A stretch of 64,000 nt of DNA from a virus (taxonomy: Duplodnaviria > Heunggongvirae > Uroviricota > Caudoviricetes): IMG/VR virus record IMGVR_UViG_3300033747_000014. The stretch is one strand, 5' to 3'. This document shows positions 45,460 to 59,760 of the stretch, one piece after another. The position numbers and the translations under genes are program-made. How positions within the stretch are numbered: position 1 is the first letter of the stretch; each line of letters begins with the position of its first letter. The notes below the pieces were generated by a model. The model saw only the letters and a list, made by a program, of their open reading frames with translations. It made no database searches and was not told where the DNA came from.

Positions 45460-45828
45460 ATGGAATTTCTATTCAATGAGAAAACTTATACTAAAGAACA
45501 AATAAAAGCAATAAATAAATTTAAAAGTTGCTTTAGGATTTTCTTTGAGGGTTGTACTTATGAATATATTGAACAGATTTATGAAACACATATTCCTATT
45601 AGGAATTTTGAAATTACAAATTTAACTTTTGATTTTCCTAAAAATGATATGATTGTTACTATTAGATTGGAAAATCCGGGGATTCTAATCGGTAAAGGAG
45701 GGGGAACAATTGATTCATTGAAGGAATATATTACAGATGTTTTCAATGGTCAATTTAAAAATGTTGAATTAAATATTGTTGAAAGTAAACTTTGGAGACA
45801 AACATTTATTCCTGAATTAGAGTATTAA
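45460..45828 (+). CDS. KH type-II RNA-binding protein (ribosomal S3 N-domain-like)
   Basis: VTIRLENPGILIGKGGGTIDSLK..VELNIVES matches the S3 KH pattern with a GxxG loop. Confidence 0.75.
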   Translation: MEFLFNEKTYTKEQIKAINKFKSCFRIFFEGCTYEYIEQIYETHIPIRNFEITNLTFDFPKNDMIVTIRLENPGILIGKGGGTIDSLKEYITDVFNGQFKNVELNIVESKLWRQTFIPELEY

Positions 45829-55085: not shown

Positions 55086-55284
55086 CATTCTTTCGTACAT
55101 TGTAGTTACTGCACATTGTGTTTTAAATTTAAAATGGACATTGTGTATATGTACACGTACATTATATATCCCTAACTGTACATTGCACCCCCACCCCTAA
55201 AGAATGTACACTTTTTATTTGGTAGTCTCAAATATTATCACTATATTTGTATTATAATAATTAACCATTAAAACTATTTCAATT

Positions 55285-55524
55285 ATGATGACAGTCGCAA
55301 CAATTACAGAACTTCTAAGAACATTGAAAAAATATTTACTCTTAAAGTATCATGCAGAAGGTAGATCAATAGATCGACCAGAAGTAAACCAATCCCTTAA
55401 TGATATGTTGAACAATATCATTATTGAACTGGAGACTTTGAGAATGAAAGAACAAATATCAGAAGAAGATTTTGAAAGCCTTGTGGAAATTGCTGAGAAA
55501 TATACCTGCCATTTGCAACTATAA
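55285..55524 (+). CDS. hypothetical helical protein
   Basis: own promoter; terminator at 55552-55590. Confidence 0.7.
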   Translation: MMTVATITELLRTLKKYLLLKYHAEGRSIDRPEVNQSLNDMLNNIIIELETLRMKEQISEEDFESLVEIAEKYTCHLQL

Positions 55525-56036
55525 ATATTGATTCGTTTTGCCATAAACGCAAAAAACCCTTCATTGATTATTTCAATGAAGGGTTTTTTTATAGTGTTTA
55601 ACCAAAAAAATAAATTTAAAATAGACAAAACAATATTACATTATGTTAAATAACCTGAAGCTATTTAACATAATAATTCTATTGGTAAATAAACATATTA
55701 TTCCCATCCTATTTAACAAAATAGTTTTTCATGTAATTTATGTTTGTCTTGTCTTTCTTTATTCATACGCAAATAATTTAATTTGTTTCTTTTTCTATGT
55801 TTAACCGATGCAAAAGTAATGCAAGGGATTTGCACAAACAATATTTAAATTTAAAATGGTCAACTTTCACATATTTTAACATACCTGCCATCTATCTTAA
55901 TTTTTGTAAACTACCGGAACCGGCTCTCCACCAGGTGTTTACACCAATTCACTAAAATTCTAATTGTTAATAAAAGTTAATATTTTAAATTTAGCTTGGT
56001 GGTTCAAATATTTACATTACCTTTGCATCAGTGTTT

Positions 56037-56082
56037 AACCATAGTGGTTTCACGGGTTTTTAATGCCACTATAAAAAACCGT
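56037..56082 (+). promoter_or_regulatory. 5'-UTR H-type pseudoknot resembling a preQ1-I riboswitch (variant), copy 1
   Basis: ATAGTGG/CCACTAT P1, ACGG/CCGT P2, ATAAAAAA L3; promoter TACCTTTG at 56018; ATG at 56092. Confidence 0.55.
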
Positions 56083-56091
56083 TCTTTGTGT

Positions 56092-56280
56092 ATGGAAATT
56101 GATGTTTGCGATTTGTATGAATTTTATCTAAAGGGATATGAAAATACGGCATATACTTTTGGATATGTGCCAGAATTCAAAGATAGTAAAACCATTGAAG
56201 CTTATGTAATGGGAAGCATTGATGGTAGAACAGATCAAAAAAAAGATTTTGAATGTTTCATTAAAAAATTTCAAAAATAA
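56092..56280 (+). CDS. hypothetical protein
   Basis: start trimmed to MEIDVC. Confidence 0.7.
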   Translation: MEIDVCDLYEFYLKGYENTAYTFGYVPEFKDSKTIEAYVMGSIDGRTDQKKDFECFIKKFQK

Positions 56281-56281
56281 T

Positions 56282-56653
56282 ATGGAAAAGTATTTTTTGA
56301 ATGTTTCGGTTGAAAATAAAGTTTATACTTTTGAGGGTTCTTTAAAAAGCACCCTTAGAAGGTGTAAATTTTATGAACACAAAAGAATCAATAAAATAGA
56401 ACCAATCGGTTCGGAGGTTGTTTCTGTTTATAGTTTCGTAAACAAACACCCTGAAGATTTTACAGTATTAGATATTGATGGTAAAATTTGTGGGGCTGAG
56501 TTTCTTCCCAAAGATGCACTTGTTTCTCAAAATACTGGAGTGGTTGTTTATCCTACAGGTTTCTTTGGGTTTCAACTGACCCTTAAGCCAAAGATTGAAA
56601 AAGCTTTTGATAGCTTATTAAGTCAAAAAAATGAGATCCCTATCTTATATTGA
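56282..56653 (+). CDS. hypothetical protein
   Basis: start trimmed to MEKYF; terminator at 56671-56704. Confidence 0.75.
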   Translation: MEKYFLNVSVENKVYTFEGSLKSTLRRCKFYEHKRINKIEPIGSEVVSVYSFVNKHPEDFTVLDIDGKICGAEFLPKDALVSQNTGVVVYPTGFFGFQLTLKPKIEKAFDSLLSQKNEIPILY

Positions 56654-56709
56654 TGACTGGTAAATTAGTCAACCCCTGCAAGATTATCCTGCAGGGGTTT
56701 TTTTATGCT

Positions 56710-56845
56710 TTATAGTGCCGGAATTTAAACCAGAAACAGTCTTAATTTAATCTTTTATATCTTTTACGGGTTCTTACTCCAGATTGATGATTGAAGTCTT
56801 TAAACAGGCTTATTTTGAATCAGTGTTAATGTATGTTAAAGAATT
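56710..56845. repeat. intergenic duplication, copy 1 (copy 2 at 59066-59201)
   Basis: shared blocks GAATTTAAACCAGAAACA and GGTTCTTACTCCAGATTGATG...GCTTATTTTGAATCAGTGTTAAT. Confidence 0.85.
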
Positions 56846-56886
56846 TGGAGGTTTAAATTTAAAAAATTACCTTTGCATTAGAGTTT

Positions 56887-56930
56887 AACCAGAGTGGTTC
56901 ACGGGTTTTGAATGCCACTATAAAAAACCG
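56887..56930 (+). promoter_or_regulatory. 5'-UTR H-type pseudoknot resembling a preQ1-I riboswitch (variant), copy 2
   Basis: AGTGG/CCACT P1, CGG/CCG P2, ATAAAAAA L3; promoter TACCTTTG at 56868; ATG at 56941. Confidence 0.55.
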
Positions 56931-56940
56931 ATTTTTGTGT

Positions 56941-57249
56941 ATGGAAATTTTAAGCAAGTCAAAAGCAGGTTTAACAGTCAAACTGATGGCTGATAAAATA
57001 AGTTTTGCTTATATGGATAAAGCAAATAACATCTTTTACGATTTCGATCAATATAGATTGAATCGTATCTTTGATTCTTTGAAAGGAAAAAAAGGAACTT
57101 TCATTGAAGAGTACAAAGGTATTAGTAAATCTGAATTAAACCATATCCAAACACAAAACAACAAAGATCTAAACAGATTGGTTAAAAAAACAGGGTTAGC
57201 CGAATCTGCAGGAATAGTTACTATATTTAAAAACAAAGGTATTATCTAA
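56941..57249 (+). CDS. hypothetical basic protein
   Basis: start trimmed to MEILSK. Confidence 0.75.
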   Translation: MEILSKSKAGLTVKLMADKISFAYMDKANNIFYDFDQYRLNRIFDSLKGKKGTFIEEYKGISKSELNHIQTQNNKDLNRLVKKTGLAESAGIVTIFKNKGII

Positions 57250-57268
57250 TTTTAAAATTGTTACCACT

Positions 57269-57421
57269 ATGGAAACCATTTATGTAGTATTTGATGGAAC
57301 TTCTTTTTTTATGGCTTATCAGGAACTTTTAAACGAAGATCCAAGCTTAGAAGTTCACGGAGAATTTTCGGATATTGAAAACGCTTCAGATTTTTGTGAT
57401 CTTAAAAATCTGGAGGTTTAA
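57269..57421 (+). CDS. 50-aa acidic protein (not in the ORF track)
   Basis: hand translation METIYVVFDG...DLKNLEV. Confidence 0.6.
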   Translation: METIYVVFDGTSFFMAYQELLNEDPSLEVHGEFSDIENASDFCDLKNLEV

Positions 57422-57459
57422 ATTTAAAATCTTTAATGTTTAACCAAAAAACTAAAATC

Positions 57460-57900: not shown

Positions 57901-57979
57901 CATTAGTTAACAACCATCCGACCAAATGTTAAAAATGTTAAATCCTTTGGTCGGATGGATTTTTATATATACTTTTGAG

Positions 57980-58060
57980 TATTCCTTTCAACGGAGAGGC
58001 TACCAAGGGCATGGTTATTTTGTTAAATAGCCGGAAGAGTAGACTCCAACCTACTTTTTT
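57980..58060 (+). ncRNA. dispersed sRNA family, copy F
   Basis: promoter TACTTTTG at 57970; GGGCA; GGTTATTT/AAATAGCC; GGAAGAGTAGACTCCAACC 58033-51; T-tract. Confidence 0.7.
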
Positions 58061-59030: not shown

Positions 59031-59060
59031 AAACCCTGTTCAAAAGAGCAGGGTTTTTTT
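59031..59060 (+). terminator. intrinsic terminator
   Basis: AAACCCTG/CAGGGTTT followed by a T-tract. Confidence 0.8.
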
Positions 59061-59065
59061 ATACC

Positions 59066-59201
59066 TTATAGTACCAGAATTTAAACCAGAAACACACCTA
59101 TTTTAATTTTTTTATCTTGTTTCAGGTTCTTACTCCAGATTGATGGTTAAAGTCTTTAAATAAGCTTATTTTGAATCAGTGTTAATATACGTTAAAGAAT
59201 T
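59066..59201. repeat. intergenic duplication, copy 2
   Basis: near-identical blocks to 56710-56845. Confidence 0.85.
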
Positions 59202-59520: not shown

Positions 59521-59760
59521 GGGATGGGGGTGTCTGTTTAACATAAGATACCCCCCTACGTATCCCCCCCTCTCCCCCTCCCCCCTATGGGGGTGGTTTT
59601 GGGGGTGGGGGTACAACACCCATAAGATATTTCAAAAATTTTTTTATAAAATTTCACATTCTATAAAACCCTTTTTATAAAAATTTATATATAAAAAATC
59701 AGAATTTCAAAAACCAAATTTATAAAAAATTATAAAACAATATAGGGGGGGGGTGTTTTT
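59521..59760. other. G/C-homopolymer patch with hairpin and G4 potential at the strand convergence
   Basis: four C-runs of 5-7 nt, several G-runs, then TTTTATAAAA-type repeats. Confidence 0.6.

Follow-up and report, generated by a model that had tools for sequence, protein, structure and literature searches.

Two near-identical 5' leaders in the early region of a jumbo phage can each fold in two mutually exclusive ways, with similar computed energies: either as two hairpins followed by a U-rich tract or as an H-type pseudoknot laid out like the class I preQ1 (preQ1-I) aptamer. Our leading reading, held tentatively and at somewhat less than an even chance, is that this is a ligand-free, two-state leader that has spread recently and damps accessory early genes, as part of a promoter-to-start-codon cassette copied between early units. 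If so, a Bacteroidota phage would throttle possibly toxic early genes, without Shine-Dalgarno sequences, by means of a movable structured leader.

The leaders and the genes behind them

The window, meaning the whole 64,000-nt stretch of DNA that was analyzed, is part of a 299-kb jumbo phage contig, has about 25% G+C and is crowded with small ORFs without assigned function. Both leaders lie on the plus strand in an early-type region, with DUF932, Tad2-like and Lar-like genes nearby. Transcription in the Bacteroidota starts 4–5 nt past the TAnnTTTG -7 element (PMC6847099), and the TAnnTTTG promoters of the phage point to a host in this group. As the initial annotation had described, two near-identical leaders are present downstream of promoters; they are 94% identical over 52 nt and 849 bp apart. 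The elements of the region, with positions in related contigs where these are known by label (L131, L134, L154), are as follows.

56018..56025 (+): promoter of copy 1, Bacteroidota-type TAnnTTTG -7 element, TACCTTTG; predicted start A56030, at 4-nt spacing
56030..56091 (+): leader copy 1, 62 nt, ending at AUG 56092
Parts of copy 1 (+): P1 56043-56047/56066-56070; G 56065; L3 56071-56078; P2 56052-56055/56079-56082
56092..56280 (+): ORF1, 62 aa, between the leader and ORF3; no homolog outside the phage
56282..56653 (+): ORF3, 123 aa, function unassigned; 96% ortholog in L131
56671..56705 (+): strong intrinsic terminator (-17.6 kcal/mol), ending unit 1
56868..56875 (+): promoter of copy 2, -7 element; predicted start A56880
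56880..56940 (+): leader copy 2, 61 nt, ending at AUG 56941
Parts of copy 2 (+): P1 56893-56897/56915-56919; G 56914; L3 56920-56927; P2 56902-56904/56928-56930
56941..57249 (+): ORF2, 102 aa, basic alpha/beta protein of a small uncharacterized family; no fold match
56032..57436 (+): 1,405-bp accessory block holding both leaders and ORF1-ORF4, bounded by a repeated TGTTTAACC motif
57975-58060: conserved non-coding stretch of about 80 nt; also at L131:8405-8475, L134:2150-2225 and L154 about 975-1060

The combination of P1, A-rich L3 and P2 is possible in both copies, and the likeness to preQ1-I on which the initial annotation was built is real. In both, G replaces the C that reads the ligand in preQ1-I (G 56065 and G 56914), and the CCG that had been put about 10 nt ahead of the start codon lies exactly 10 nt from the AUG. 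Two features were absent from that first reading: the U-run of the loop can pair with the A-tract into a hairpin of roughly 12 bp with a U-tract behind it, and U6 is a possible partner of the G. A generic scan for the pseudoknot layout (5-bp stem, A-rich loop, second stem) matches these two sites only in the window, and the same scan on order-4 Markov nulls gives 0.075 matches per 64 kb. Because the copies represent one duplication, the two sites were counted as one event; the pattern anywhere is modestly above chance, and more so within a promoter-to-AUG leader.

The downstream genes are hypothetical and not que genes, as had been pointed out: they fall in no Pfam or PHROG family, and no que gene is among the called genes within 10 kb. 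The ORF2 model (pLDDT 84) has no Foldseek or VIA match, the ORF3 model is unusable (pLDDT 40), and Atlas searches for the downstream proteins returned nothing. These proteins give no hint of a ligand.

In F. johnsoniae, A at -3, -6, -12 and -13 boosts initiation, and structure reduces it (PMC6847099). Both leader start sites have A at none of these four positions, as is true of only 3 of 137 window ORFs, and there are just 2–3 A residues between -15 and -1 in both leaders versus a mean of 7.9. The sole A-tract of the leader is paired up in every fold. Codon 16 of ORF2 is a second, better placed AUG, yet residues 1–15 are conserved throughout the family, which makes the first AUG the probable start. 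An in-frame upstream GTG start, found in copy 1 only, and a three-codon uORF (AUG-CCA-CUA), lost in L134, were both considered and set aside as not conserved.

Several other features of the surrounding DNA were recorded. A minus-strand TAnnTTTG promoter at 55797-55830, kept in L131, L134 and L143, points away from copy 1 and would transcribe an AT-rich gap at 55640-55810. A 19-nt inverted repeat (C-rich/G-rich; 55183-55201 and 59598-59616) flanks a 4.4-kb early block, whose 56–60 kb part has raised G+C (0.31–0.32 vs 0.25). Within the same region, a 151-nt direct repeat (85%; 56695-56845 and 59051-59201) runs from terminator tail to next promoter and looks like a repeated regulatory cassette. 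The conserved non-coding stretch listed above contains short hairpins, has a terminator-like repeat on one side and the DUF932 promoter on the other, and is a possible small RNA. In a sister phage (L143:7060-7330), the ortholog of a 79-aa ORF (window 55285-55524) is frameshifted and has no start codon.

Two competing folds

ORF2 has three close relatives, and their contigs add three leader copies (two from L131, one from L134), so that the leader comparisons concern five closely related copies from three phages. In copy 1 the competing structures are these.

56037..56049 (+): H1, hairpin of 5 bp and a 3-nt loop; incompatible with P1; left arm within a 5' motif common to the phage's plain leaders
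56043..56082 (+): possible H-type pseudoknot, made of P1, P2 and L3 plus U56048.G56065
56052..56091 (+): H2 and U-rich tract; P2 lengthened as five U pair with the A-tract; alternative resembling a weak terminator or a pause

H1 corresponds to the AACC/GGUU hairpin that had been suggested to disrupt P1; it is present (56037-56041/56045-56049), and the two cannot coexist. Nearest-neighbor folding favors H1 and H2, that is, two hairpins with a U-tract resembling a weak terminator, in four of the five copies, whereas P1 is dominant in copy 2. The pairing probabilities are 0.91–0.99 for H1 and 0.68–0.94 for H2 in the four copies, and 0.77 for P1 in copy 2, where formation of P1 leaves the A-tract paired with the U-tract ahead of the AUG. 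Simulated co-transcriptional folding takes copy 1 from H1 to P1 and then to H1 with H2. Rough energies, with the triplex term left out, are -5 to -7 kcal/mol for the pseudoknot versus -9 to -11 kcal/mol for the nested folds, placing the pseudoknot 3–5 kcal/mol higher; in L134 its energy is near zero. H2 is followed by 5–6 U within the next 7 nt in all copies. At only -5 to -5.5 kcal/mol, it falls far short of the stability of the phage's true terminators (-16 to -22 kcal/mol), and a terminator scan did not call it.

The differences among the copies bear on each helix. P1 and P2 show no two-sided change; P1 has lost a G-C pair in L134 (now A.C), next to the pocket floor, and P2 has lost its outer pair in copy 2. 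Covariation in P2, which the initial annotation had named as a check on the pseudoknot, is thus lacking in the five copies, among homologs that are 84–98% identical and so do not make a strong test. The G or A at the 'ligand' place can pair with U6 in all five copies (U.G or U-A), which would shut the pocket. H1 is intact in 5/5 copies, and the sole two-sided change, C-G to U-A, lies in H1 and at the same time breaks P1. This compensatory change is a weak sign, since it would arise at random with a chance of about 4% for H1 and 21% for any helix.

Two further ideas about the leader were rejected. Pairing with its own start codon as the main mechanism does not fit, as the complement is found in only 2/5 copies and the AUG is free in minimum-energy folds; derivation from the phage's terminator tails, copied in inverted orientation, gave a best local alignment score of 29, inside the shuffle range of 26–38.

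From the computed foldability and poor start context we infer termination, pseudoknot formation and damping, in a scheme that could run as follows. H1 would fold first, after which H2 and the U-tract would cause partial termination or pausing, and the transcripts that read through would be poorly translated. Point changes would shift the balance between folds, toward P1 in copy 2 and wholly toward H1 and H2 in L134, and this balance could in turn tune output without a ligand.

The base before the 3' strand of P1

The pocket bases of preQ1-I type I are U6, U7, U16, C17, A30 and C31 (PMC8752633), and every class I preQ1 type reads its ligand via a cytosine (PMC11625349). Five of these six bases are present in the leader (U6, U7, U16, A30 and C31), and only C17 is replaced. 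The bases before the 3' strand of P1 are UG in four copies and UA in L134, and the cytosine specificity base (UC or AC) is absent. The G5-C floor, the A-rich L3, U6 and A30 are present in all five copies, with an A.C pair under the floor in L134. Infernal with RF00522, which the initial annotation had proposed as a check, returned a likeness well under the cut-off of 39, with copy 2 at 19.5 bits (E 1.5) and copy 1 unlisted at E ≤ 10; a real tmRNA PK1, that of L113, scores 23.6 bits on this model, above the leader. As the specificity base, the score and the gene context all fail, the leader is not a member of preQ1-I.

In the Rfam tmRNA consensus, stem 1 has a G directly 5' of its 3' strand. 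When metagenomes were scanned for this P1, G and A-tract, the matches listed included many tmRNAs, the motif being their PK1; these matches were selected by a pattern derived from the leader, and the Rfam consensus is independent of it. The type I beta-site bases U7, U16 and C31 are present in the leader and also in the L113 tmRNA PK1, and hence are not diagnostic. Because G is the tmRNA PK1 consensus base and L113 has the same five bases, a G at this place is by itself no pointer to a new ligand. The P1/L3 module is a pseudoknot part shared by tmRNA PK1 and preQ1-I, and since tmRNA PK1 also has P1 and the A-tract with a G ahead of the 3' strand, that combination alone is not enough to call an altered preQ1 aptamer. 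The consensus G, the A in L134 and the broken P1 there all tell against the altered-specificity riboswitch that the initial annotation had put forward, of which the likeness in layout stands. Its other option, a ligand-free structured leader, fits better, be it mainly a pseudoknot or mainly two hairpins. The leader is not part of a tmRNA, and no catalogued family covers it. In the window, Rfam at the gathering cut-off finds three tRNAs only, and neither ARAGORN nor Rfam finds a tmRNA.

A comparable substitution was found in three leaders elsewhere, each preceding a gene for a Vut_1 queuosine-precursor transporter.

L019:1095-1135 (+): preQ1-I-like leader
L169:917-957 (+): preQ1-I-like leader
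L002:523-563 (-): preQ1-I-like leader

In these, U-G or U-A replaces U-C/A-C before the 3' strand of P1, and they score 20–26 bits on RF00522, under the cut-off. Their gene context would suit a queuosine-related ligand. They are better altered-specificity preQ1-I candidates than the window element and the better testing ground for that idea. A covariance model built from them gives 68–76 bits to its members, 21–22 to the window copies, 20.4 to an unrelated phage element and 19.5 to tmRNA PK1; kinship of the phage leader with the Vut_1 leaders is unsupported, as its score barely tops that of the unrelated element and is far under those of the members.

Related modules were seen at other loci. 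A 45-kb phage (L004:211-242, plus strand) has a compact stem plus A-tract resembling preQ1-I, which keeps the canonical AC and lies three bases ahead of the AUG of an IclR/MarR-like HTH gene; it gives no RF00522 match at E ≤ 0.001. Another phage element (L005:2295-2328, minus strand; also in L006 and L008-L010) has the same P1/L3 module with A before the 3' strand of P1, a possible 5-bp P2 and no clear downstream gene.

Movement of the cassette, rival readings and known systems

The leader is not tied to one gene. A 69% ortholog of ORF2 (L136) has a plain A-rich leader instead, and in L131 the leader stands directly before the ORF3 ortholog, from which ORF1 seems to have been inserted at shared first codons. 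Sister phages L143, L145 and L165 are without the 1,405 bp between the two TGTTTAACC motifs, and there the copy 1 promoter runs directly into the plain leader that serves the following gene. The DNA upstream of the L134 ORF2 leader resembles that of the L131 ORF3 leader (8% different), and cassettes diverge by 2–10% between copies whose upstream DNA differs by 38–49%. The unit moved by recombination thus extends from the -7 element through the first two or three codons. The near-identity of the copies reflects this recombination and is not independent proof of selection. Its range is narrow in the searches made: BLASTN against annotated phages gave no real match, pattern scans found no further copy in IMG/VR and GTDB genomes and none among the matches listed from JGI metagenomes, protein-based locus scans found no relatives, and the loci of distant ORF2 homologs (L155, L156 and L167) have no such leader.

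Such mobility also allows that there is no selected RNA structure, the cassette being a by-product of recombining promoter-leader motifs and the preQ1-I likeness a chance product of an AT-rich genome. Leader divergence equals that of flanking promoter DNA (6–8%, p=0.77), so that selection on structure is unproven; copies are fused to differing promoters and genes at short shared motifs, between which sister phages delete the block; folding energies are unremarkable against shuffles (z-scores -0.8 to +0.7); every variant harms a different helix; and the 3' half of the leader also occurs by chance within a coding sequence (L159). We nevertheless consider this reading rather unlikely. The pseudoknot pattern is rare in nulls and is placed exactly in the leader, three to four complementarities overlap within 45 nt, and a start site so poor in A is extreme in this genome. 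Moreover, the leader diverges less than ORF2 synonymous sites (20–40%), with 5/62 vs 18/75 changes in one pair (p=0.02). Another reading makes the leader an operator, with a phage RNA-binding protein on one of its folds or a DNA-binding protein on the AACCA-N3-TGGTT palindrome past the start. Translational operator pseudoknots are established in phages, for example in T4 gene 32, and this phage encodes a stand-alone KH protein (45460-45828; KH_2 E=4e-8; ortholog L131:2968-3336). H1 is a perfect palindrome in 5/5 copies, holds the sole two-sided change and has a variable first spacer base. However, nothing links the KH protein to the leader, ORF2 is without a known RNA-binding fold, and most of the palindrome's left arm belongs to the 5' motif that nearly all leaders in the phage share, which leaves an operator quite improbable.

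A ligand-binding element would be the most novel outcome, and we judge it unlikely: no earlier preQ1-I offshoot has its specificity base changed, and phage early genes would be under riboswitch control. It would be a variant preQ1-I-like riboswitch that turns on early accessory genes in a host without Shine-Dalgarno use. U6 would pair with the purine at position 17 and extend P1, and the ligand, a 7-deazaguanine, another purine or a signaling nucleotide, would sit one layer higher in a stand-alone beta-like site formed by the equivalents of type I U7, U16 and C31, stabilizing the pseudoknot against H1 and H2. The leader would then be an undescribed preQ1-I offshoot, kin of the U-G/U-A leaders before Vut_1 genes. 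The five conserved pocket bases are consistent with this, a choice between two folds close in energy, one of them terminator-like, is how riboswitches are wired, and the three Vut_1 leaders share the U-G/U-A change, G/A polymorphism included; their model also ranks the window copies first among other sequences. That rank comes with a margin of just 1–2 bits over tmRNA PK1 and the unrelated phage element, and the RF00522 score is half the cut-off. A stand-alone beta site has not been seen (PMC11625349), L134 breaks the G-C pair adjoining the pocket floor, and L2 is 10 nt long and complementary to L3. Nor does the setting suit it, with no que genes within 10 kb, downstream proteins without an assigned kind and a leader that the 69% ortholog does without.

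On the preferred reading, the leader would work like a structured attenuating 5' leader whose pseudoknot option has its closest counterparts, as to layout, in tmRNA PK1 and type I preQ1-I. With tmRNA PK1 (RF00023) the leader has in common the 5-bp stem 1, the G 5' of its 3' strand, the A-rich L3 and a stem 2 able to gain U-A pairs by recruiting the A-tract; the PK1 of L113, which has no known ligand, matches the leader in P1, L3, the CGG/CCG junction, U6, U7, U16 and C31. Unlike PK1, the leader sits in an mRNA with competing H1 and H2 folds, and its L2 is 7–10 nt versus 1–3 nt. The end of the A-tract is 13 nt from the AUG versus 17–18 nt from the resume codon in tmRNA, and a tmRNA-like placing of the first codon was rejected with the spacing off by about 5 nt.

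With preQ1-I type I (RF00522; C. antarcticum, PDB 8fb3) and type II (B. subtilis queC, T. tengcongensis), the leader shares a P1 equal to the Rfam consensus, U6, U7, U16, A30, C31 and an A-rich L3. It differs in C17 being G/A, in a long U-rich L2 complementary to L3, in a P2 without Shine-Dalgarno sequence, in having no que or transporter gene downstream and in P1 being broken in one homolog. The uncatalogued Vut_1 leaders have the same P1, AAU[G/A] before its 3' strand, the same L3 and CC, but differ in a T. tengcongensis-like CGCAGU loop, a Shine-Dalgarno sequence that follows L3 immediately and a gene of the queuosine pathway. ZTP and fluoride riboswitches are ON-type transcriptional switches in which a pseudoknot competes with a terminator. 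They differ from the leader in having no Rfam sequence likeness to it and in that its terminator is very weak; what the leader has in common with them is a pseudoknot and a terminator-like hairpin that share strands.
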